Part shown: piece by piece, positions 3,401 through 39,460 of the stretch | How the letters are laid out: each line of letters begins with the position of its first letter | Numbering within the stretch: the first letter of the stretch is position 1 | Virus record (IMG/VR): IMGVR_UViG_3300009694_000006 | Location: 1 to 39,460 of that record | Direction: 5' to 3' (one strand) | Length of the DNA: 39,460 nt | Source of the DNA: a virus | Program-made: the position numbers and the translations under genes | The notes under the pieces: generated by a model | The model's input: only the letters and a program-made list of their open reading frames with translations | The model's database searches: none | What the model was told of the DNA's origin: nothing

Positions 3401-4920
3401 CAGCATTCTTTTCACTTAAAGAAAGAGTTAAAAGAGTACCTAAAGAAATATACGAAACAGATTATAGAAAAGTTGCAAGTCGCTGGTTAGATGGAATAAC
3501 ACAATTTATAACAATGGGTGATACTACTAACCATCTTAAGTATTTAATTAATAGTGATGAATTTAAAAGTTTAATTAAAGAACAAGATTATTCAATTGTT
3601 TCTAATTGGCTTAAAGATATCACAACTCCTCAGATATCAGGTTCATTAGCAGGACAAGCGACAAATGATTTATCTAGATTAATGAGAAAAGGAGTTGCTC
3701 TTGGGTCTCTTGGATTAAACTATGCTACAGTTCTCAAACAGGCATTAACTCAAATACCAATAACTATTATTGAAAAAGCACCTCCTAAATTTAAAAGTAA
3801 ATATGCTGAAGCTTTTGGAATTAATGTTAAAGATTTACCTTCTATTTCTAAGAGAAAAGGAGATATTGCTATATCAGATTTACAAGGTAAAATAGGAAGT
3901 ATTTTTACAGGAGCTATTACACAGTTTGATAAGAAGAATGCTCAATTAGCTATGAATGCTTTACTTGATAAAGAGTATCGTAAATTTTTAAAACAAGGAG
4001 ATGAAATAACTCCAGAAGTAAGAAAAGTAATTGAAAAGACAGCTCAAGATAAAATAGATATGTGGTTTGGAGGTTTCTTTAAAGGACAAAGACCTGAAGC
4101 TTATAGACAAGAATTAGGAAACTTTATTTTAATGTTTACTTATCCTTTGACTTCTCAAGCTAATGGATTTTTCAGACATATGTTAAAAGCTAAAGGTTTT
4201 GTTGGAAACATTAAAGCTGTTGCCGAAGTTCTTGGAGCTGTTGTAGGAATTGCTTATATGGAAAAAGTTATAGAAAATCTAAGTCCTCAATGGAGTGATG
4301 AAAAAGAAATGACAAAAGATATTCTTGTATCTGCAACAGGAAATATTCCAATGGCTGGACAGATTGCTTATGCTATAGAATCAGGACAAGATATGAACGT
4401 ATCTCCTGTTGTAGGAAATATAAATAATATAGTTAGAAATATAAGTAAAGGCGAAGGAGAAAAAGTAGCTTGGAATATTGCTGAAACTATTGGATTACCA
4501 AAACAGATTAGACGAATTAGAGAAGGTCTTGAAATAATGGAAGAAGGCGGCGTTACAGATAGTAACGGAAAAATGATGGCTCCTGTTCAAGATACTATGG
4601 AATATATTCGCGCATTCTTAAGAGGAAAATATGGACCTTTAGCTTCCCAAGATTATATTAGAAATATGGGAGCTGATGCTGAAGATAGAAGATGGTTTTA
4701 TCCTGAAGTTGAATTTTTACAAAATGCTGGAAGTTCAAAACATCCTAAAGATGGAAGTTATAAGAGAAGAGCAGAAATTTATAAAACTTGGGATAAACAA
4801 AAACAAATTGAAATGAGAAATTTTTTAAGTGAAAATCAACAAAAAAAATTAGATAAAGCTCTTCAAGGAAAGTCGACATCTAGTAAGGGCACAAAAGCAT
4901 TATCAGATATTTTTAAATAA
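451..4920 (+). CDS. Giant polyvalent virion/ejection protein (1489 aa), a T7 gp16-like position. The N-terminal third has three ADP-ribosyltransferase-like modules. The C-terminal part is a large hydrophobic/Gly-rich body.
   Basis: PARP-like motifs YYHGT...GIMGNGIYLD...AKLYG (H230). An R-S-E-like set TLYRAV (R410), SWSYS and ETENEVIV (E484, E486). A second H-Y module YVYHAT (H543)...SMYGNAPHF. Sits just before the lysis genes and after other large structural genes. Confidence 0.6.
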   Translation: MYTPVEQRKKIVKQKSFSKSEKKQITIETVKGVLGWTKPEDNPYLKVAKDIAQGIARTVASVGISAGNIPSKIKSQRPTFKEEIPTQETKLGRAIFGETPVRTVEERVRRTKEQIKPYIGEKISQKVAFPLVGLGIAMDLSGFGGGKVVKKMTEIPEQFWKVIGKEKNATKIEGILTSIGLDKKNARSLSETFAPLSKTEDLKNALVSYKPVSERIPLSEIIKKEPVYYHGTNNGKEIVKQGFNLSKLGDNSGYKGIMGNGIYLDMTPNAEGAKLYGKDILEVKPKSGLKLFEWSGKVSDLYHEKTGYGTPEKITEYLQSQGYDGVKLNNQQMVIFNPKNIEKVKISGQGTGELSQIKESEIKPVKKEPLQNETIKWIDNWVSGSNKKPSLKVEQQLSKYKGNKPVTLYRAVIKGKEKTNEIESWSYSKDGAEFHADVGFPENAEYTIIEKQFNPEDIIFDSRHLSEDELSSFSENALRYLETENEVIVRNNKIKIPKTGNEVKESPIDIKFQSKIKNKEYLKKNFEDEDLKIEDSGKKYVYHATNSKNIEEIKQEKFYRAQPKGEGLIKRGGGSMYGNAPHFSENLVTAKMYGDNIIEFGIKDGSNIKRFKGTYDLNKEVGEWAEKTKGAFYKNNTEGNQLIDDWAKANKVDILFVGQDGSIFNQNAIKRFDDNKSLFPTVIQGETFTMGPSTTTSPTLKGLKTELKATQKEIKNAQIAAEKAAKLDAKEQKVRTDALSKLNRYRGSTDTIEGELKNKNLSQEDIENIVLEDGTKLLDAAKIKRNNDGSLSTVITKKELEDIKASYTDEVPKQKWEKKSILVNAKEIPINLLKSIELPYSYFERKGLSSIYDQVIESQRDAELMKSRLIEKFKDAGLYKEGGWFTANRFNLSKNEAEGVSEYYLGHQGHGKEIPITDLSSNGQKFVKVFDEIINETTKPFYEVARRMGKNPGVVENYAPIMTRDDIKLVDQGGGQDWLFRKHPAFFSLKERVKRVPKEIYETDYRKVASRWLDGITQFITMGDTTNHLKYLINSDEFKSLIKEQDYSIVSNWLKDITTPQISGSLAGQATNDLSRLMRKGVALGSLGLNYATVLKQALTQIPITIIEKAPPKFKSKYAEAFGINVKDLPSISKRKGDIAISDLQGKIGSIFTGAITQFDKKNAQLAMNALLDKEYRKFLKQGDEITPEVRKVIEKTAQDKIDMWFGGFFKGQRPEAYRQELGNFILMFTYPLTSQANGFFRHMLKAKGFVGNIKAVAEVLGAVVGIAYMEKVIENLSPQWSDEKEMTKDILVSATGNIPMAGQIAYAIESGQDMNVSPVVGNINNIVRNISKGEGEKVAWNIAETIGLPKQIRRIREGLEIMEEGGVTDSNGKMMAPVQDTMEYIRAFLRGKYGPLASQDYIRNMGADAEDRRWFYPEVEFLQNAGSSKHPKDGSYKRRAEIYKTWDKQKQIEMRNFLSENQQKKLDKALQGKSTSSKGTKALSDIFK

Positions 4921-6135: not shown

Positions 6136-6150
6136 TTTAATAGTAAAAAG

Positions 6151-6176
6151 TAACCTTAGAAATAAGGTTATTTTTT
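6151..6176 (+). terminator. Intrinsic terminator ending the late/lysis operon.
   Basis: Stem TAACCTTA, loop GAAA, stem TAAGGTTA, then TTTTTT. Confidence 0.8.
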
Positions 6177-6220
6177 ATTGTATGGTTTAATAATTTAGTT
6201 GTTTTATTGTCTAATATTAA

Positions 6221-6266
6221 TATATTAATAAAGTAGGTTGGATTATTTTTATTTTTATTATATAAT
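6221..6266 (+). promoter_or_regulatory. Early promoter family member 1: -35 TTGGAT (6238-6243), 17-nt spacer, -10 TATAAT (6261-6266).
   Basis: Shares the upstream block TATATTAATAAAGTAGG and identical spacing with the promoters at 13082 and 16484. Confidence 0.65.
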
Positions 6267-6307: not shown

Positions 6308-6679
6308 ATGGATAATAACGAAAGAATTATAAAAGATGCTCAATTTAGAAAAGGTCTTAGTATAGCATTTTTTAATGCGACTAACTCGGCGATAACCCTT
6401 GTATCGACAGATAAAGAATACTATACAGAAAGTGAATTAAAAGAAAAAATTGTTATGTGGAGAGATTTCTTTTTGAAAGAACATGAAAATTACTATTCAA
6501 AGGTAATTTCACCTATTGGTTGTCTTTATGATAAACAAGAAACAATTAAACTTATCGAAAGTGCAACTGGTATGGAAGATTTGAAAGATATTTGGCTTTC
6601 AATTTCTCAAGATGAAAGAAATGATGCTGATATTATCAAAGTTAAAGATGAAATAAAACAGAAATATGAAAACATTTAG
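6308..6679 (+). CDS. Hypothetical early protein (123 aa).
   Basis: First ORF after early promoter 1. No motif recognised. Confidence 0.5.
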   Translation: MDNNERIIKDAQFRKGLSIAFFNATNSAITLVSTDKEYYTESELKEKIVMWRDFFLKEHENYYSKVISPIGCLYDKQETIKLIESATGMEDLKDIWLSISQDERNDADIIKVKDEIKQKYENI

Positions 6680-7241
6680 TATTGAACATCGAAAACATAT
6701 AAGTGAAAAAATGAAAGGAAATAAAAATGGTTCTTTTAGTAAAGGAATTTCTAGATTAAAACTTAAAGGAGTTTCTAGAACAGATGAAGTTAAAAGAAAA
6801 ATTAGTATTTCTCATAAAGGAAAAAAGTTTTCAAAAGAACATATTCAAAAACTTAGAGAAGCTAGATTAAAAAATCCTAATAGATATTGGTTGGGTAAAA
6901 AAAGACCAGAAATTACAGGTAAGAATAGTAAAGTTTGGGTTAATGGTGATTATAAAAAAGCAGAAAATAAAATGCAAGATTCTGCTTATATGAATTGGTC
7001 TTATTTAGTTAAAAAAAGAGATTTAGGAAAATGTAGATTATTAAATAATGAATGTAAAGGTCGTTTAGAATCACATCATATTTATAGTTGGAGAGAATAT
7101 CCTACACTAAGATATGTTTTAACAAATGGTATAACTTTATGCCAATTTCATCATCCTCGAGGATATGAACAAGAGAAACGAATGATTCCAATATTTCAGG
7201 AATTATTGTCAGTATCAAAAGAAAATATTGAAAATCTTTAA
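6666..7241 (+). CDS. Free-standing HNH homing endonuclease with NUMOD3-like repeats.
   Basis: NUMOD3-like repeats HRKHISEKMKGNKNG and KRKISISHKGKKFSKEHIQKLREA. C-terminal HNH motif ESHHIYSW...NGITLCQFHH. Overlaps both neighbouring genes. Confidence 0.7.
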   Translation: MKTFSIEHRKHISEKMKGNKNGSFSKGISRLKLKGVSRTDEVKRKISISHKGKKFSKEHIQKLREARLKNPNRYWLGKKRPEITGKNSKVWVNGDYKKAENKMQDSAYMNWSYLVKKRDLGKCRLLNNECKGRLESHHIYSWREYPTLRYVLTNGITLCQFHHPRGYEQEKRMIPIFQELLSVSKENIENL

Positions 7242-13053: not shown

Positions 13054-13081
13054 AAATTAGAAAGTTATACTGTAATACTCA

Positions 13082-13127
13082 TATATTAAGAAAATAGGTT
13101 GTCCTATATTTTAATATATCATATAAT
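13082..13127 (+). promoter_or_regulatory. Early promoter family member 2: -35 TTGTCC (13099-13104), 17-nt spacer, -10 TATAAT (13122-13127).
   Basis: Upstream block TATATTAAGAAAATAGG and spacing match the promoters at 6221 and 16484. Confidence 0.65.
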
Positions 13128-13134
13128 CGATATT

Positions 13135-13719
13135 ATCGAGGTAAAGAATTTCATTGAAATCTTGATATCAAAAGTAGTAGTAAAGGAGCTTCAACACCCT
13201 TCTACCTAAGTGAAAATAGAGCTTTTGATATTAGGTTTCAGTGAATTTCTTCACTGAGTTAATTTACAACTGGAATATAAGTGCTCAAGAAAGAAAAGCA
13301 ATTAGAAGATGAGATTATAAAACAATAATATACTCATATCAATTTCTTTACTAATCTTCTTTCTTCTTAACATTTCTAGTAACTACATTCTGGTTTAAGA
13401 TAAGTTTTAAATTTAATAGGGTGTGTTAGCTCTCACAAAATTAAGTAGAGTTCAACCCAAATTTAAACAAAAAATCTTTTTCAATATCACTATTGGTATA
13501 AATTAATATCGATTTTTAATTGTCGTGCACGGTTCTGATATTCCAGAAATGGAGTAGAATTAAGAATCATAGTAGCTTTTATGTTACTATCTTTGCTTGA
13601 TAATAACAGATTATAAGCAACTAACACATAGAAGAATTCCGATAATAGTCAGTTATAAAGTTGTAGTGAACCTTTATAATATCCATTCTATTATCGGATT
13701 CTCTCTTGTGTAATAAATT
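13135..13719 (+). ncRNA. Long ORF-free structured leader or non-coding RNA (about 585 nt) upstream of the deazaguanine module.
   Basis: No ORF of 60 aa or more in any frame, and none longer than about 11 codons seen on the + strand. Contains a 28-bp duplex (13146-13174 with 13222-13249), a competing hairpin (13239-13256), and hairpins at 13419-13458, 13570-13591, 13594-13620 and 13634-13701. Confidence 0.45.
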
Positions 13720-14132: not shown

Positions 14133-14834
14133 ATGTTTAAAAACTACAAAGTTACACCAGAGAATATTTCTTCGTTGTATGTTATTATCGCGGGATTGTT
14201 TGTATGTTTCTTAATGATAGCAAATATTGCAGCAAATAGAATGGTATCGTTGCCTTTTGGTATAATTGTTACAGGTGATATCTTTCTATTTCCATTGACC
14301 TATATTTTCGGAGATGTGTTAACAGAAGTTTATGGTTTTAAAAGATCAAGATTAGTAATCTGGTTAGGAATGCTAGCTAATCTTATCATGATCGGTTATT
14401 TTACATTATTAATTAAAACTCCTTTTCCATCAGATTTCGTAGCTAATGATGCGTATAGAACAGTTCTTGGTGTTACACCTATTATTGTTCTTGCTTCTAT
14501 TCTTGCTTTCTTTGCCGGAGAATTCTCAAATTCAGCATCGTTATCAATTATCAAAAAATGGACAAAAGGAAAATTCTTATGGATTAGAACTATTGGTTCT
14601 ACTATTATAGGTCAAATTTTTGACACTTTAACTTTTATGTTTATTGCGTTTAATTTCTTACCTAAAGAATTATTCTGGCAAATGGTTCTTGCTCAATACT
14701 TGTTTAAAGTAATTTATGAGATTTTAGCAACACCTTTGACTTACATGATTGTTAAAAGAATTAAAAAAGTTGAACAGTTAGATACATTCGATTATGGAGT
14801 TAAGTATAATCCATTTTCGTTAAAAATAAAATAA
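14133..14834 (+). CDS. yhhQ: YhhQ/VUT-family queuosine-precursor (preQ0/preQ1) transporter.
   Basis: Multi-TM protein with family motifs FPLTYIFGDVLTEVYG, STIIGQIFDTLTFMFIAF and QYLFKVIYEILATPLTY. Confidence 0.8.
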   Translation: MFKNYKVTPENISSLYVIIAGLFVCFLMIANIAANRMVSLPFGIIVTGDIFLFPLTYIFGDVLTEVYGFKRSRLVIWLGMLANLIMIGYFTLLIKTPFPSDFVANDAYRTVLGVTPIIVLASILAFFAGEFSNSASLSIIKKWTKGKFLWIRTIGSTIIGQIFDTLTFMFIAFNFLPKELFWQMVLAQYLFKVIYEILATPLTYMIVKRIKKVEQLDTFDYGVKYNPFSLKIK

Positions 14835-14838
14835 ATAT

Positions 14839-15705
14839 ATGCGAATTTTTTTTGCAGTTAGTAATTCATCAACATATCTTAATCTCTTAAAAGAAGAAAA
14901 AGTTGATAACGTTTTAATCTCATTTGCTTTTTTCAAAAGTGCATATAAAACAAGAGAAATCTTTGGAGATTATCAACCTAAAAATCTTATTCTTGACTCA
15001 GGAGCATTTTCTGTTTGGAGTAAAGGAGATGAGATAGATATAGATCAATATGCAGTTTTTTGTCAGGATATAATTAAATTATTTTCTGAAACAAACTGCT
15101 ATTGTGTTAACTTAGATGTTATTCCTGGAAAGTTTGGAAAACGACCAACTTCTCAAGAAATAATAGATAGTGCAGAACAAGGATGGAAGAATATGGAATA
15201 TCTTGAATCAAAAGGATTAAAAGTTATTCCGGTATTTCACCAGCATGAAGATTTTTCAGTTCTAGATAAATTAACAAAACACACAGATTACATTGGAGTA
15301 TCACCAGCAAATGATTGCTCAATGGAAGAAAAGTTAAGTTGGCAAGATCAAGTATATTCAATTTTAGTTAAACAACCTGAATTGATTAAAACTCACGGAT
15401 TTGCTGTAACTTCTACAAAACAACTTTACCGATATCCATTATTTTCAGCAGATAGTTCTTCCTGGACTTCTCCTAGTCGTTTTGGAACAATTCCTATTGT
15501 TACAGATGATTTAGAAATGAAAGTAATTAAATATAAAGATAAAACATCTGTAATGAAATACTGGGAGTATATCAAAGATTGGAGTATCGAAAAATTATCT
15601 TCCGAAGATTGGAAAGATAGAATTACATTATCAATCAAGTCGTATTTACTTCTTAATAAGATAGCTAATAAGTTATGGGATAAAAGAGGTATTAAGTGGA
15701 AATAA
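14839..15705 (+). CDS. dpdA: DpdA-like DNA-guanine transglycosylase (TGT superfamily).
   Basis: LILDSGAFSVW motif (TGT/DpdA DSGxF), size 288 aa, adjacent to yhhQ and a ParB-like gene. Confidence 0.6.
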   Translation: MRIFFAVSNSSTYLNLLKEEKVDNVLISFAFFKSAYKTREIFGDYQPKNLILDSGAFSVWSKGDEIDIDQYAVFCQDIIKLFSETNCYCVNLDVIPGKFGKRPTSQEIIDSAEQGWKNMEYLESKGLKVIPVFHQHEDFSVLDKLTKHTDYIGVSPANDCSMEEKLSWQDQVYSILVKQPELIKTHGFAVTSTKQLYRYPLFSADSSSWTSPSRFGTIPIVTDDLEMKVIKYKDKTSVMKYWEYIKDWSIEKLSSEDWKDRITLSIKSYLLLNKIANKLWDKRGIKWK

Positions 15706-16439: not shown

Positions 16440-16483
16440 TAGGTGGGGATAACTATTTTTTAGTCTTATTTTACAAGATGGTA

Positions 16484-16529
16484 TATATTAATAAAATAGG
16501 TTGTCCTAAAATAAAAAATAGCTTATAAT
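16484..16529 (+). promoter_or_regulatory. Early promoter family member 3: -35 TTGTCC (16501-16506), 17-nt spacer, -10 TATAAT (16524-16529).
   Basis: Upstream block TATATTAATAAAATAGG is nearly identical to that of the 13082 promoter. Confidence 0.65.
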
Positions 16530-16537
16530 ATAATCAA

Positions 16538-16607
16538 GGAGGTATGAATATGGGATAGGACATTTTGGTTACGACTGGAATTATCCTATGTCATATTCCT
16601 CTACTCC
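16538..16607 (+). promoter_or_regulatory. 5' leader hairpin holding the only strong SD-like AAGGAGG I noticed in the genome, plus a 2-4 codon mini-ORF.
   Basis: GAATATG (16546-52) pairs with CATATTC (16592-98). ATAGGA (16555-60) pairs with TCCTAT (16584-89). GGAG (16538-41) pairs with CTCC (16604-07). Mini-ORF is ATG AAT ATG GGA TAG. Confidence 0.4.
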
Positions 16608-16632
16608 GATTATAAATTAAAAAATATTTTTT

Positions 16633-18865: not shown

Positions 18866-19275
18866 AGACAAAAAAAGTATCAAAAGAACAATTAAAAGGA
18901 ATAGTTTCAAATATAATGGAATTTGAAACAGATGAATTGCTTGAAAAAGCAGTTAATAGTTTATTTGAAGGATATTCAGTTATTGTTGATGCAGTTTGTT
19001 ACATTGGAAATGGGAGATATGTAGATAAAAAATCAAAGAAAAGGTATAAATATAAAATGATAGTTCCAATACTTGATAATTATAATAATCTTTATTCAAC
19101 TGATTTATATCAAGAAAATTCATCAAATGCAATAATGGCTAAATATGCAATTTATCGTGCAACAAGACAAAAAGTAGTTGATGTCGTTGCAGGAATTAAA
19201 ACAGATTATTCATTAAATAGATTTGATTTTGGTTATAAAAATGGTGAATATGGAATTTTTAAAATGATAAGATGA
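18862..19275 (+). CDS. Hypothetical protein (137 aa).
   Basis: ORF only. Confidence 0.45.
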   Translation: MKTKKVSKEQLKGIVSNIMEFETDELLEKAVNSLFEGYSVIVDAVCYIGNGRYVDKKSKKRYKYKMIVPILDNYNNLYSTDLYQENSSNAIMAKYAIYRATRQKVVDVVAGIKTDYSLNRFDFGYKNGEYGIFKMIR

Positions 19276-19349
19276 CTTTATTAAACTTTATAATTGAAGG
19301 ATATCAACAAGGAAAGATAAAAATTATCTCGAAGGAAGTTCATAAGTAA
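19272..19349 (+). pseudogene. Truncated, frameshifted paralog of gene 19742-19945.
   Basis: MTLLNFIIEGYQQGKIKIISKEV compares with MMLLNCIINDYKENKLKIISKNV. Nucleotide similarity (AAGTAAAAGA...) continues past the stop in another frame. Confidence 0.5.
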
Positions 19350-19430
19350 AAGAAAATGAGAAATTTATAAAAGATAAAGTTACTGAATCAATAAAACAAA
19401 AGTTTAATTTAGAAGAATAATCTCCCTCTC

Positions 19431-19560
19431 CCCCTATCTAATGAGTTAGTGTGTTGATAAGCCCGTCAGTTCAAGTGTGGTTCGCCACCTGTTCCTACTA
19501 GCTAGCATAGAATGGACAACTTGAACGGGGTTACCAGCACATTAACCATTATTTATAGGG
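19431..19560 (+). ncRNA. GC-rich structured RNA of about 130 nt, class unknown.
   Basis: Closing stem CCCTAT/ATAGGG. A near-continuous rod (19439-19476 with 19519-19551) ends in a three-way junction. One arm is a GTGG-TTCG-CCAC tetraloop hairpin (19477-19488) and the other a second hairpin (19490-19518). Local GC is far above the genome background. Confidence 0.6.
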
Positions 19561-19577
19561 ATGATGAATAAAAATGT

Positions 19578-19745
19578 ATGAAGTTAACACAATTACAGGT
19601 AAGAACTATTTTAAAAGTTCATAAAGATCAAAGAATAGGACAATTTCTATATAATGTTTTCTTTGGATTAGATATATTTAACTTAAGTGACAAAGAGTTT
19701 ATCAAAAAATTAGAAGATTATCAACATATAAATAAAAAACAATGA
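19578..19745 (+). CDS. Small ORF (55 aa), not in the supplied track.
   Basis: Translates MKLTQLQVRTILKVHKDQRIGQFLYNVFFGLDIFNLSDKEFIKKLEDYQHINKKQ. Its stop overlaps the ATG of the next gene (ATGATG). Confidence 0.45.
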   Translation: MKLTQLQVRTILKVHKDQRIGQFLYNVFFGLDIFNLSDKEFIKKLEDYQHINKKQ

Positions 19746-19945
19746 TGTTACTTAACTGTATAATTAATGACTATAAAGAAAATAAACTTAAAATTATAAG
19801 TAAAAATGTTTTCTGTCGTAAAAGTAAAAGATGTAGAGAAGTTATTAAAAAATTATATTTTTTACAATACGATAATGGAGATATTCGAAGAATCGGAAGA
19901 AAAGAACGAGAAATATTACAATCTATCAATAAAATAACCTCATAA
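19742..19945 (+). CDS. Hypothetical basic protein (67 aa).
   Basis: ORF. Intact paralog of 19272-19349. Confidence 0.45.
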   Translation: MMLLNCIINDYKENKLKIISKNVFCRKSKRCREVIKKLYFLQYDNGDIRRIGRKEREILQSINKITS

Positions 19946-19960
19946 GCGAGGTTATTTTTT
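19931..19960. terminator. Bidirectional intrinsic terminator between convergent genes.
   Basis: AAAATAACCTC, loop ATAAGC, GAGGTTATTTT. A-run and T-run flank the stem. Confidence 0.75.
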
Positions 19961-20189
19961 AGTTTAGAAACTTGTAAAGCCTTTTAATTTTTGGATTTAC
20001 ATTCTCATAGTGTTTCATTTTAGATATTCTCAGAATTAACATGATTATATCATAGAAGTCTTTATCAAAGAAAATAGAATGAATCATTTTTTCTTTTTGT
20101 TCGTCTATGTATAATAAATTTTCTGGGATAGATTTTCCACCATTACATCTATTCTTAATGTGATGATAAACATTTTTTTTCTTTTTCAT
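19959..20189 (-). CDS. Small HNH endonuclease (76 aa). The only convincing minus-strand gene.
   Basis: YHHIKNRCNGGKSIPENLLYIDEQKEKMIHSIF matches HH...GG...N...H. Confidence 0.6.
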   Translation of the reverse strand: MKKKKNVYHHIKNRCNGGKSIPENLLYIDEQKEKMIHSIFFDKDFYDIIMLILRISKMKHYENVNPKIKRLYKFLN

Positions 20190-20227
20190 AGCTCAAAGAT
20201 CTATTTGTTTTATCAATTATAGCATAT

Positions 20228-20256
20228 TTGATTTTTTATCAAAAATATCTTATAAT
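20228..20256 (+). promoter_or_regulatory. Late promoter family member 1: -35 TTGATT, 17-nt spacer, -10 TATAAT.
   Basis: Shares the 20-nt block AAAAATATCTTATAATAT(G/A)TATAT with 25510-25533. Confidence 0.55.
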
Positions 20257-20282
20257 ATGTATATACTATTTTAAATAAAAAC

Positions 20283-24161: not shown

Positions 24162-25498
24162 AGCAAATAGTTAATGAAAAGTATATTGATATGTTTCCTA
24201 TACCAAAAGGAATCCGCTATGTTATCTTAATTGGTGGACGAGGTGCTGGACGTTCTACAGTATCATCACAATATAGCTTAGCCAACTTAGTGGCTCCTAA
24301 TTATTTTAGAGGGGCTTTTATGCGTTCTGTATATGCTGATATAAGAGAATCATGTTATAAAGAAATAACAGATAGAATGGACGAGCAGGAAGTTACAAAT
24401 AAAATGAAAATCAATGATAACGAAATGGAAATAACTTATGGACTCAATAGTCTAAAAGCTCATGCATTTCGTAAATCATCTTCAGGACACTCAGCTAAAC
24501 TTAAATCGTTGGCATCATACAATCAAGTATGGATAGAAGAAGCTGAAGAAACAGGTGAACAAGAGTTTATGACACTAGACGATACCTTAAGAACGACAAA
24601 AGGAAACATTAATATCATTTTATCTCTTAACCCTCCATCAAAAAATCATTGGATAATATCAAGATGGTTTGACTTATCTCAAGCATACGAAGAAGATGGA
24701 ATTACTCCAATCAAAGGATTTTATACTCTTAAACTTAAAGACGATGTTAAAGATGTCTTATTTATTAATACAAACTACAAAGATAACATCGTTAACTTAG
24801 ATGCTCATACTATACAACGATACGAAAAGTATAAAGAAACTAAACCAGATTACTATTATCAAATGATAAGAGGCTTGGTTCCTGAAACAGTTCGTGGTAA
24901 AATATATAAAAATTGGAAGATAATAGATAGTATTCCACATGAAGCAAGACTTGTAAGGCGTGGGATGGACTTTGGTTGGTTTCCAGACCCTATGTGTCTC
25001 GTTGATATTTACTATTACAATGGCGGTTATATCATTGATGAATTACTTTACGGGACAATGATTAAGAATAGAACTATTGCAGATACGATTGCTATTCAAA
25101 ATGAACCAGATATCTTATGTGTTGCTGACGAAGCTGAACCAAAATCAATTGATGAAATATCTGATCTTGGAATAAATATTGAAGGATGTCCGAAGGGTAA
25201 AGGATCAGTATCATATGGAATCAAAACAGTTGCAGGATTAAAGATATCAGTTACTAGACGCTCAAAGAATGTTATTATATCATATGAAAATTATGCTTGG
25301 AAAGAAGATAAAGATGGAAATCCAACAGGTGAACCAAGTCATGAATACTCACACGCCATGGATGCTATAAGGTATCCTTTAGTGTCTTTGGTCGATAGTA
25401 GAATGGATCCAGAAAGAGAAGCTAAACAACAGATTGAGGTAGTAGTCAGGCGGGATAAGTATAAAAAAGATCAATCAAGAAAGTTTGGAACATCATAA
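24158..25498 (+). CDS. terL: Terminase large subunit.
   Basis: Walker A GGRGAGRST, Walker B VWIEEAEE, nuclease Asp motifs GMDFGW and HAMDAIRY. The ATG at 24158 is preferred over the TTG at 24140 in the track. Confidence 0.9.
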   Translation: MKQIVNEKYIDMFPIPKGIRYVILIGGRGAGRSTVSSQYSLANLVAPNYFRGAFMRSVYADIRESCYKEITDRMDEQEVTNKMKINDNEMEITYGLNSLKAHAFRKSSSGHSAKLKSLASYNQVWIEEAEETGEQEFMTLDDTLRTTKGNINIILSLNPPSKNHWIISRWFDLSQAYEEDGITPIKGFYTLKLKDDVKDVLFINTNYKDNIVNLDAHTIQRYEKYKETKPDYYYQMIRGLVPETVRGKIYKNWKIIDSIPHEARLVRRGMDFGWFPDPMCLVDIYYYNGGYIIDELLYGTMIKNRTIADTIAIQNEPDILCVADEAEPKSIDEISDLGINIEGCPKGKGSVSYGIKTVAGLKISVTRRSKNVIISYENYAWKEDKDGNPTGEPSHEYSHAMDAIRYPLVSLVDSRMDPEREAKQQIEVVVRRDKYKKDQSRKFGTS

Positions 25499-25499
25499 T

Positions 25500-25528
25500 T
25501 TGGAGTTTTAAAAAAAATATCTTATAAT
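25500..25528 (+). promoter_or_regulatory. Late promoter family member 2: -35 TTGGAG, 17-nt spacer, -10 TATAAT.
   Basis: Shares the AAAAATATCTTATAATAT block with 20238-20262. The -10 ends 6 nt before the ATG at 25535. Confidence 0.55.
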
Positions 25529-25534
25529 ATATAT

Positions 25535-25852
25535 ATGGAAACAAAAAAATACAAAATAATTGGTAAAATAGAGATAGTAACAGAAGAAGGAAAAGGAACT
25601 GGAAAGTTTCTTGCAAAGAATTCAATTCATGAGATACCTGAAGAATTAGGTAGTAAATGGGTTGAAAATGGTGATGCAATATTAGTAGAAGATAAGTTAG
25701 ATAAAGACGAAGAGAAAACAGATGCTACCGAAATTAAGGTGTATAACAAAGATAATCAGGTAGTAAGAGTTTATAGTAAGGCAGTTCATGGTAAAAATTT
25801 TATAAAGTTAGCAAAGGAATTTACAGTTAAGAAAGGTTATTCATTGAAATAA
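25535..25852 (+). CDS. Hypothetical protein (105 aa).
   Basis: ORF. Possibly translated from a leaderless mRNA. Confidence 0.45.
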   Translation: METKKYKIIGKIEIVTEEGKGTGKFLAKNSIHEIPEELGSKWVENGDAILVEDKLDKDEEKTDATEIKVYNKDNQVVRVYSKAVHGKNFIKLAKEFTVKKGYSLK

Positions 25853-38198: not shown

Positions 38199-39460
38199 AT
38201 GACACAAACTTACAATAGAAATACAACAACCGCCGAATTTGGAAATAGAAATCAAGCTGTTGCGGATTTACAAAAATATCTAAATACAAAAGGAGCAAAT
38301 CTTAAAGTCGATAGTATGTATGGACCTTTGACTCAAGAAGCTGTTAAAAAATATGGAACTCCTCCTGCTACAACAACTAATGTTTCCAAACTTGAAAGCC
38401 CTGTTCCTGCTACAAATTTAAGACCTACAACAAATGTTAATTTGCCTACTGTTGAAGCTCCTGATGTTTATAAAAATTACACAACTTCTCTTGCGTCAAA
38501 TGTTGATACTTTAAGAAAGAACTTAGAAACTACTTATAAAACTCAATCTGAAGATCTTGCATCAAAGAGAGAAAAGTTAATGAAAGAGCAGAAACAAATT
38601 ACGAAAGAAATGAATCCTGAAGAACGAGCAACTTATGAACAAGAAAATAGAATTAAACAACAAGAATTGAATGCCGCAGAAGTCGCTTCAGGAACATTGC
38701 AATCAGATTTTATGAAACGACGCAAGTTATCAAGCGAATTAGAAAATCTTCTAAATCAAAGTAATTCTTTAATTGCTGAAGAAAAAGGAATGCCTTTAGC
38801 TCAAAGAGTAGTTACAGCTCGAACGGCTAATACATTAAGTGATATTGCTTCTAGAACCGGTGTTATTGAAGCAACCTTTTCAGCACTTGATGGAAATATA
38901 ACTCAATCTTATAACTTAATTGATAAAGCAAAAGAGACTGTATCTGCAGATTGGCAAGATAAGTTAACTTATTATGATACGTTGCTTGATTTGAATAAAC
39001 AAGGATTACTTGATATTGATACTGAAAGTAAGGATATAGCTCAAAAACAAGTAGGATTACTTGAATCAGATCTTAAGAAAGTAACTGAAACATCTGATTA
39101 TATTAAAGAATTAATGATTGATCCTGAATCTGCTCAATTCTTAGCTGATTCGGGTGTAAAACTTACAGATAGTATTGAACAAATAAATACTAAACTTGCA
39201 ACTCAATCTAAAGCTCAACAAATAATTGACACTAAAAACGAAATGATAAAAGATGGATATACTTATATTCCATTTCCTAGTTCAACAGCTGGTTTAGTTT
39301 CTATTACAGCTGGAGATAAAACTTTATGGTTTAAACCTGAAGTCAAAGCAGTAACAACTATAGCTACAAAAACAAAAGGAGGAGCATCTGTTAATATCTT
39401 AACTCCAACCAATAAAACAGCATTACTTGGAGCTGGTTTAACTTTAGACGAAATCAATCA
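38199..39460 (+). CDS. N-terminal part of the wrap-around virion protein: peptidoglycan-binding domain, Pro/Thr linker and long coiled coil. Continues at 124-448.
   Basis: Not in the supplied track because there is no stop before the window end. I translated it without stops from ATG 38199. Contains FGNRNQAVADLQKYLNTKGANLKVDSMYGPLTQEAVKKYG, matching the PG_binding_1 pattern. Confidence 0.75.
   Translation, partial: MTQTYNRNTTTAEFGNRNQAVADLQKYLNTKGANLKVDSMYGPLTQEAVKKYGTPPATTTNVSKLESPVPATNLRPTTNVNLPTVEAPDVYKNYTTSLASNVDTLRKNLETTYKTQSEDLASKREKLMKEQKQITKEMNPEERATYEQENRIKQQELNAAEVASGTLQSDFMKRRKLSSELENLLNQSNSLIAEEKGMPLAQRVVTARTANTLSDIASRTGVIEATFSALDGNITQSYNLIDKAKETVSADWQDKLTYYDTLLDLNKQGLLDIDTESKDIAQKQVGLLESDLKKVTETSDYIKELMIDPESAQFLADSGVKLTDSIEQINTKLATQSKAQQIIDTKNEMIKDGYTYIPFPSSTAGLVSITAGDKTLWFKPEVKAVTTIATKTKGGASVNILTPTNKTALLGAGLTLDEIN
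39338..39460. repeat. Terminal direct repeat, right copy of 1-123.
   Basis: Identical 123 nt. Confidence 0.95.

Follow-up and report, generated by a model that had tools for sequence, protein, structure and literature searches.

The early mRNAs of bacteriophages T7 and SP82 are processed at intergenic hairpins, long imperfect rods (the R sites in the case of T7) that lie within polycistronic early transcripts and have no promoter or terminator of their own. Phages of the phi29 family encode a packaging RNA (pRNA; RF00044) of about 120 nucleotides (nt), in which the 5' and 3' ends pair as a short helix, followed by a three-way junction that bears two long hairpins; a pRNA loop is capable of intermolecular pairing, and a few hundred nt separate the pRNA gene from genes for head assembly. 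Miniature inverted-repeat transposable elements (MITEs) such as RUP or Correia are 100-150 bp long, almost wholly self-complementary, and distinct in composition. Y RNAs are 80-130 nt long, with paired 5' and 3' ends that form a long stem, and they bind Ro60/Rsr and serve as a tether for an effector; the Y RNA criteria used here are those of Chen et al. 2014 (PMC4201824). Here, we describe a 130-nt structured element that can be compared with each of these systems. It lies at positions 19431-19560 of the window, i.e., the whole 39,460-nt stretch of phage DNA in IMG/VR record IMGVR_UViG_3300009694_000006, to which all positions below refer. That the element is a new functional small RNA is plausible, if unproven. 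We tentatively favour its reading as an accessory, stable, protein-binding small RNA that would be excised from an early transcript and act in trans as a Y RNA does, and put this reading at somewhat less than an even chance. The likeness to Y RNAs is meant as one in the logic of action, not as membership of the family by sequence.

RNAfold predicted one dominant structure for the element, with the centroid identical to the minimum free energy (MFE) structure. Its 49 pairs (46 Watson-Crick and three G-U) build a long rod closed by the 5' and 3' ends and a tight three-way junction at the tip of the rod (coordinates of all features are collected in Table 1). Between the six segments of the rod, of 6, 5, 12, 3, 5, and 6 bp, lie bulges of one base, one A x C and one G x G mismatch, and a bulge of 4 nt. 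The linkers of the three-way junction are 0, 1, and 0 nt long, C19489 being the sole linker base, and the second junction arm holds an 8-nt palindrome, CUAGCUAG, at 19498-19505. An initial annotation, made from the sequence alone, had proposed this fold, and every helix that it named was present, in the same place, in the RNAfold pair list: the closing stem (19432-37 with 19555-60), the two helices above it (19439-43 with 19547-51 and 19445-48 with 19543-46), a 12-position helix (19449-60 with 19531-42) with one mismatch (A x C, 19457/19534) and two G-U pairs, the helices CCCGU/ACGGG and UCAAGU/ACUUGA, and both junction hairpins (19477-88 with the UUCG loop, and 19490-19518 with the loop GCUAGCA). 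A pyrimidine tract reported directly 5' of the element was likewise found, at 19421-34. The statement that the fold leaves almost no sequence unpaired went too far, since 98 of the 130 nt (75%) are paired.

The MFE of the element was -52.6 kcal/mol, compared with -31.4 +/- 3.8 kcal/mol for 200 dinucleotide shuffles (z = -5.5), none of which folded as well. When 130-nt windows were scanned over both strands of the 39.5-kb genome, the element ranked first, at -51.4 against a mean of -19.0 (standard deviation 5.9). The structure is thus statistically exceptional and real, being the best-folding 130-nt window of the genome. GC content reaches 44.6% at 19431-19560, as compared with 17-22% in the flanks and 30.1% in the genome as a whole, and GC content over 130 nt is highest in the window at 19411-19540 (46.9%), a stretch that overlaps the element. 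The enrichment claimed in the initial annotation is therefore there, while its figure of close to 50% is reached only by the apical 70 nt (52.9%). GC islands in AT-rich genomes are a classic signature of structural RNA genes. The pyrimidine tract TCTCCCTCTCCCCC occurs once in the window, and no purine tract complementary to it was found there when up to three mismatches were allowed. The fold, its exceptional statistics, and the GC island are directly established.

Non-coding status and operon context are established in the same direct manner. A six-frame check revealed stop codons in every frame of the element, and no open reading frame (ORF) of at least 30 amino acids (aa) overlaps it. These stops confirm that no ORF covers the element, as had been proposed, and a coding remnant was rejected on their account. 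They also fail to support the alternative, raised in the initial annotation as an outcome that would overturn its proposal, of a protein-coding fragment derived from a higher-GC donor; the sole identity with a coding region is a 23-nt patch that is probably due to chance. ORF137 and ORF55 are 302 nt apart, and the element occupies part of this gap, on the sense strand of the final early transcription unit, in keeping with the early location initially assigned to it, and 370 nt before the terminator of that unit. It is not an intrinsic terminator itself: no U tract lies 3' of it, the sequence that follows being AUGAUGAAUAAAAAUG, and a terminator scan yielded only the site at 19931-19958.

The element is a part of a cassette, which became apparent from comparison with L008, the closest relative found (Logan SRR25490544; 81% identity in a conserved 579-aa late protein), whose sequence is cut off just downstream of the expected element position. 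L008 is colinear with the window only from 19733 on, with 77% identity over 2.2 kb that include ORF67, a small HNH gene, and the late gene (blastn). To the left of the cassette, the window carries a remnant of the 5' end of an ORF67-family gene. This remnant (19267-19342) shares 86.8% identity with the first 76 nt of a 73-aa gene of L008 (192-267 there) and matches the start of the window's own ORF67 at just 47 of 76 positions. Judged by sequence, the remnant copy is a recombination scar. The comparison with L008 implies that 19343-19732 is an insertion relative to the L008 lineage, which arose from recombination with a donor. Since the insertion is flanked by the leftover 5' end of a gene, the cassette behaves as an exchangeable accessory unit. 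Outside of the element, the GC content of the cassette is 17-22%; the GC island thus belongs to the element and not to a foreign high-GC block. The presence of the cassette and of the gene remnant beside it is a matter of direct observation.

ORF137 is the gene upstream of the element, and its homologs in other phages share early regions with Tad2-like and Tad4 (anti-Thoeris) genes (L090 5919-6239; L093 2887-3252). Such company hints that the neighbourhood of ORF137 may be an accessory or anti-defence region.

Two relatives of the phage encode rod-closed structured RNAs of their own, and these too were observed directly. In the sister phage L009 (Logan SRR30464925_3509; 72% identity in the late protein), positions 4395-4504 of the plus strand specify a rod-closed tRNA mimic with a T-arm, GTTGGTTCAAATCCAAC, a closed acceptor-like hairpin, and a D-arm, CCTCAGTGGTAGAGG. 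This RNA (4402-4504) matches the Rfam YrlA family, RF02553, with 33 bits and E = 1e-5, below the gathering score of 69. Its GC content is 46% versus 32% in the background. Its gap, close to where the early operon ends, is separated by one gene from the same late gene downstream, and in an alignment the RNA exactly replaces a 53-aa ORF of another sister phage, L002. No rsr gene was seen in the 11.7 kb of L009. A second relative, L003 (IMGVR_UViG_3300014204_003852; 69%), carries at 1687-1866 of the plus strand a 180-nt RNA that is closed by a 22-bp helix (z = -5.1) and has no Rfam match. This RNA is located directly 3' of a 42-nt promoter-like repeat (845-886, 1642-1683) and is followed by a re-duplicated gene leader, AACAGAGATTAGGAAATAAGAGATT-ATG. 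In pairwise alignments, the element matched the RNAs of L003 and L009 no better than shuffled sequences did, and the three RNAs are without sequence similarity. What they have in common is the end-closed architecture, the GC enrichment, and a place late in the early operon, with the same late gene downstream at a distance of ~0.5 kb (L009), ~0.7 kb (window), or ~2.1 kb (L003).

Additional observations were made in other relatives. A more distant one encodes an RtcB-like RNA ligase motif, HQGYGMPIGGV (L048 380-550), and in two others, GC-rich long hairpins follow repeated AAGGTGGCA motifs downstream of the late gene (L056 3780-3900 and L068 3384-3503).

The GC island within flanks of 20% GC, the location on the sense strand of an operon, and the sister-phage RNAs nearby make a functional structured RNA plausible. 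The Y-RNA-like reading is favoured because of the exceptional stability of the element, its GC island (two other long rods of this phage have a GC content of only 33-35%), its sense-strand, non-coding position, the exchangeable cassette in which it resides, the RNAs of L009 and L003, and the accessory or anti-defence setting of ORF137 homologs. The sequence of events could be as follows. The plus strand would be transcribed as part of a polycistronic early message, probably from the promoter-like repeat at 16.5 kb to the terminator at 19931-19958. The message would then be cut or trimmed to the base of the rod closed by the 5' and 3' ends, releasing a stable RNA of ~130 nt. The rod would shield the ends of this RNA, and the three-way junction with its UUCG and palindromic-loop hairpins would serve as the recognition module. 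The small RNA may bind a host or phage protein in trans, as a decoy or a scaffold, and may thereby play a role in host takeover or anti-defence.

Comparison with YrlA-type Y RNAs (RF02553; PMC4201824) brings out both the strength of this analogy and its limits. With its 130 nt and an end-closed rod of ~37 bp, the element has the size and the long stem of paired ends that characterize Y RNAs, and the stem bears a separate apical module. Like YrlA, it is a GC-rich island encoded in an operon, and processing of a longer precursor would release it; a YrlA-like RNA is present near the end of the early operon of L009, upstream of the same late gene. Its apical module is different: a three-way junction from which a UUCG hairpin of 4 bp and a hairpin with a palindromic loop emerge. 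Several further results weigh against the Y-RNA-like reading. The element had no match to the YrlA model at E <= 10 in either 401-nt or 161-nt searches. The Ro/Rsr-contact motif GNCGAAN0-1G is missing, and there is no CGAA on the plus strand of the element. No tRNA-like domain, with T-arm, D-arm, and acceptor-like parts, could be found: ARAGORN results were empty, and a T-arm/D-arm regular expression matched only L009. A nearby gene for Ro60/Rsr was not found either, as no TROVE/Rsr domain was detected in 30 window proteins searched against Pfam (18 more were searched against PHROGs only, and ORFs shorter than 90 aa were scanned in part). The element has neither a promoter nor a terminator of its own, and there is no sigma-70-like site immediately 5' of it. 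Good folding is also shown by the minus strand (z = -4.1) and by single-stranded DNA (z = -5.4), and only the three G-U pairs set the plus-strand RNA apart from the minus strand or DNA; thus, thermodynamics alone is no proof of an element that works as a plus-strand RNA. The phage has two other long intergenic rods that are probably plain 5' leaders, which makes a simpler role in cis plausible. Finally, no homolog of the element was present in any collection searched (phage, plasmid, IMG/VR, GTDB, and relatives), and hence there is no support from covariation.

The searches behind this last point covered several types of data. The identical phage was recovered in ~10 JGI, ENA, and Logan contigs, and the one that was retrieved (L006, 6,414 bp) agrees with the window base for base; clustered at 90% identity, the proteins of this phage form clusters of one sequence each. 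Loci of relatives were fetched via the 579-aa late protein (four from IMG/VR, 80 from metagenomes, 12 from GTDB genomes, and two Logan contigs), and six loci with ORF137 homologs were added. A covariance model built from the single sequence (R1) found only the window copy and nothing in 109 further loci (~665 kb, comprising the late-protein, ORF137, and pattern-scan loci). BLAST against 50,697 phage records and 72,556 plasmids returned nothing beyond AT-rich chance matches of 19-39 nt. Exact-pattern scans were run with four pieces of the element against IMG/VR and with one against GTDB genomes; the GTDB scan and one of the four IMG/VR scans gave no match, and the matches in the others were isolated 18-23-nt identities without the rest of the structure. 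All of these candidates were rejected by the covariance model. A 20-nt exact identity at L005 2979-2998 is intergenic, beside an unrelated HNH gene, and no rod surrounds it. The identity of 23 nt at L110 3757-3779 falls inside a 144-aa ORF on the opposite strand; it is probably due to chance, yet is longer than expected. Identities of 18 nt in L108 and L109 are in coding-looking sequence and were judged to be chance. The initial annotation had counted a lack of homologs with compensatory changes against its proposal, and such a lack is what is currently observed, the element being a singleton with clonal copies only. Our claim stays modest because of this.

Known RNA classes were considered as well. 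Over the whole window, Rfam 15 gave no matches at the gathering threshold, and the 401-nt and 161-nt searches with the element at E <= 10 produced only spurious matches to small nucleolar RNAs and rRNAs, with E > 1. ARAGORN detected no tRNA or transfer-messenger RNA genes in the window. The assignment to an unknown class, other than tRNA or transfer-messenger RNA, therefore held. The idea of self-cleavage, raised in the same annotation as one to be tested, found no support: there was no match to an Rfam ribozyme, and the core motifs CUGAUGA and GAAA are absent. A hammerhead ribozyme was rejected on the absence of these motifs and on the junction linkers of 0, 1, and 0 nt. The element resembles the phi29-type pRNA in its size, in the 5'/3' helix that leads into a three-way junction with two hairpins, in a loop predicted to be capable of intermolecular pairing (in the element, the self-complementary GCUAGC), and in the distance of its gene to head-assembly genes. 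It is, however, not matched by RF00044, and the proportions are reversed, the rod of the element being long and its arms short. In addition, the phage possesses a classical terminase, with a GP3_package TerS and a Terminase_3 TerL, and not a phi29-type ATPase, and a pRNA was rejected on these grounds.

The rival that deserves the most attention is a purely cis-acting role, in which the rod would be an RNase III-type site or a protective stem for mRNA processing or stability, uncoupling the ORF55-ORF67 message from the upstream genes and shielding its new ends, and no trans-acting RNA would be made. We regard this as possible, if on balance rather unlikely. The element is intergenic in a co-directional operon, lacks its own promoter and terminator, and has the at least ~20 bp of double-stranded RNA expected of an RNase III-type hairpin in a polycistronic transcript, including a perfect 12-bp helix within ~37 stacked pairs. 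In these respects, it is similar to the T7 R sites and SP82 hairpins, and it shares with them the occurrence of other rods in the same genome: two, with z-scores of -5.9 and -4.5, begin within ~10 nt of an early promoter-like repeat, and one of them has a forked tip. These two are probably 5' leader structures. The missing sequence conservation among relatives would also fit a need for structure only. The other rods are, however, AT-rich simple leaders, while the element, with its GC island, three-way junction tip, and UUCG loop, is more GC-rich and more elaborate than cleavage needs, and it travels with an orphan gene as a cassette and is not a fixed feature of the operon. RNase III cleavage, moreover, is not predictable from sequence. 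A self-cleaving ribozyme, or a riboswitch leader that would control ORF55, is much less credible and can be considered highly improbable. The size and the three-way junction are compatible with small ribozymes or aptamers, and ORF55 begins only 18 nt downstream; yet no Rfam match was obtained even at E <= 10 in the 161-nt search, the core motifs of hammerhead ribozymes are missing, there is no obvious pocket between linkers of 0, 1, and 0 nt, no alternative terminator/anti-terminator pairing is present, and the genes of this phage have no Shine-Dalgarno sequence to sequester.

The same self-complementarity could also operate at the level of DNA, in double-stranded or cruciform form, with 45-bp arms around a 42-bp centre with two small palindromes, GTGGTTCGCCAC and CTAGCTAG, as a site of protein binding, recombination, or replication, or as the remnant of a miniature mobile element. 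The good folding of the minus strand and of single-stranded DNA, the 46 Watson-Crick pairs among 49, and the position at a recombination junction are in accord with this explanation, and the length, near-complete self-complementarity, and distinct composition recall MITEs. The element is nevertheless single-copy in the window, none was found in the 109 loci or in the phage, plasmid, IMG/VR, and GTDB searches, and, although inverted arms are present, no direct repeat that could be a target-site duplication flanks 19431 and 19560. The 76-nt diverged repeat at 19267-19342 and 19737-19812 flanks the larger cassette and not the element. Neither an integrase nor a transposase nor a reverse transcriptase was found among 48 scanned proteins, packaging is by TerS/TerL encoded 4 kb away, no GC-skew switch occurs at the element, and three transition-type imperfections yield a plus-strand G-U pair against one that yields A-C, which is weak evidence against this explanation. 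We therefore consider a DNA-level role improbable. Specific candidates of this kind were also discarded: attP, as no integrase was found; a retron msr-msd, as no reverse transcriptase was found; and a pac or cos site, given the distance to the terminase genes and the assembly of the genome as a circle. An antitermination element was discarded because late genes have their own repeated promoter. There is a similarly small chance that the element has no function and is a hitch-hiking palindrome, left by the recombination or template switching that built the cassette and still undecayed. It is a singleton in a clonal phage population, adjoins a recombination scar and a gene remnant, and its conservation cannot be shown. 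A neutral palindrome made from local sequence should, however, have a GC content of ~20% and not 45%; bulges, G-U pairs, and a three-way junction are unlike a fresh perfect hairpin duplication; and relatives have structured RNAs near the ends of their early operons, one of them recognisably YrlA-like.

Table 1. Positions of the structured element, its parts, and neighbouring features in the 39,460-nt window
Feature	Position	Strand	Details
Structured element	19431-19560	+	Rod of ~37 bp closed by the 5' and 3' ends, and tight three-way junction; RNAfold
Pyrimidine tract TCTCCCTCTCCCCC	19421-19434	+	Unpaired except for the last three C, which open the closing stem; GC 71%
Rod, 5' strand	19432-19476	+	Helices 19432-37, 19439-43, 19445-56, 19458-60, 19462-66, 19471-76
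Rod bulges and mismatches, 5' strand	C19438, A19444, A19457, G19461, CAGU 19467-70	+	From the pair list
Rod, 3' strand	19519-19560	+	From the pair list
Junction arm 1, hairpin GUGG-UUCG-CCAC	19477-19488	+	4 bp; UUCG tetraloop closed by G-C
Junction arm 2, 29-nt hairpin	19490-19518	+	5-bp stem, 3x3 internal loop, 3-bp stem, 7-nt loop GCUAGCA
Accessory cassette, ~390 nt	19343-19732	+	Not in L008 (blastn); 78-nt AT-rich stretch, pyrimidine tract, element, ORF55
Remnant of the 5' end of an ORF67-family gene	19267-19342	+	25 codons, MTLLNFIIEGYQQGKIKIISKEVHK*; left of the cassette
ORF55, orphan small gene	19578-19745	+	Starts 18 nt downstream of the element
ORF67	19742-19945	+	Final gene of the early unit; belongs, in full length, to a small gene family also present in L008
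Intrinsic terminator of the last early transcription unit	19931-19958	+	Terminator scan
Long rod with forked tip	13138-13256	+	z = -5.9; 33-35% GC
Long rod	16529-16614	+	z = -4.5; 33-35% GC
Early promoter-like repeat, family D2	6220-6266, 13081-13127, 16483-16529	+	47 nt, three copies; TTGTCC-17-TATAAT overlapping an ATAGG-N4-CCTAT palindrome
Nearest early promoter-like repeat 5' of the element	16483-16529	+	D2 copy; presumed transcript start
Late promoter-like repeat, family D10	20226-20264; second copy 25498-25536	+	TTGATT-17-TATAAT; precedes the conserved 579-aa late gene

ORF55, which is carried by the cassette, matched only itself among 5.8 billion proteins and had no PHROG or IMG/VR match. 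Its AlphaFold2 model consists of three helices of low confidence (predicted local distance difference test score of 66), too low for a fold search. For ORF67, a search of IMG/VR gave no match.

The first 123 nt of the window are an exact repeat of 39338-39460. This terminal overlap means that the genome is either a 39,337-bp circle or terminally redundant. Nearly all genes are on the plus strand. Some 670 nt beyond the element, the late promoter-like repeat at 20226 marks the boundary between early and late genes, and a further repeat family, D16, comprises twin terminators at 6147-6182 and 19931-19966. Taken together, these repeat families provide a transcription map of the phage. Early genes include those for a YqaJ exonuclease, a DnaD-like loader, a VRR-NUC protein, a ParB_N protein, a YhhQ/Vut_1 transporter, and a DpdA-like transglycosylase, and late genes include TerS (GP3_package), TerL (Terminase_3), and a major head protein.

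Several features of the genome were recorded in passing. The YhhQ/Vut_1 queuosine-precursor transporter gene (14133-14834, plus strand; Pfam, 1.4e-48) adjoins that of the DpdA/TGT-like transglycosylase (14839-15705, plus strand; phrog_887, 3.5e-48), a pair that suggests 7-deazaguanine modification of the phage DNA. GGCC does not occur in the window (19 expected), and GTAC (8 versus 105 expected) and ACGT (25 versus 105) are strongly avoided. Shine-Dalgarno motifs are nearly absent, with three weak matches at 41 gene starts when 25 nt upstream were scanned, the leaders being A/T-rich instead; because of this near-absence, the host probably initiates translation without a Shine-Dalgarno sequence. 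The Bacteroidetes-type promoter motif TAnnTTTG was not enriched. Relatives of the late protein were found in metagenome-assembled genomes of Clostridia, Proteobacteria, Patescibacteria, and Acidobacteria and point to no single host group. A 191-aa endonuclease-like protein is encoded at 6666-7241 (plus strand), with weak matches to homing-endonuclease/HNH PHROGs (best E = 8.4e-7) and with NUMOD3 just under the Pfam cut-off. The sole minus-strand gene, at 19959-20189, lies between the early terminator and the late promoter and specifies a 76-aa protein that is HNH-like by sequence motif only.

A broader claim, which we consider doubtful, is that the element founds a new class of stable small phage RNAs, defined by a rod closed at its ends, a three-way junction of tight build, and a loop that is complementary to itself, in a region late in the early operon of this phage group where non-coding RNAs are exchanged. 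In L009, the YrlA-like tRNA mimic takes a comparable position, and the unrelated RNA of L003 lies further upstream. Cassettes of this kind would then be RNA "morons" that bind host proteins and divert them, e.g., RNA-repair, RNA-decay, or RNA-sensing defence factors. If the element is only an mRNA processing hairpin, it belongs to the ordinary plumbing of phage gene expression. If, on the other hand, the element functions in trans as an RNA, the few protein-binding small RNAs that phages encode would gain a new family. Seen alongside the L009 and L003 RNAs, it would mean that structured RNAs are swapped in phage early operons in the manner of accessory protein genes, and it would make RNA decoys in host takeover and anti-defence directly testable in an uncultured group of phages.

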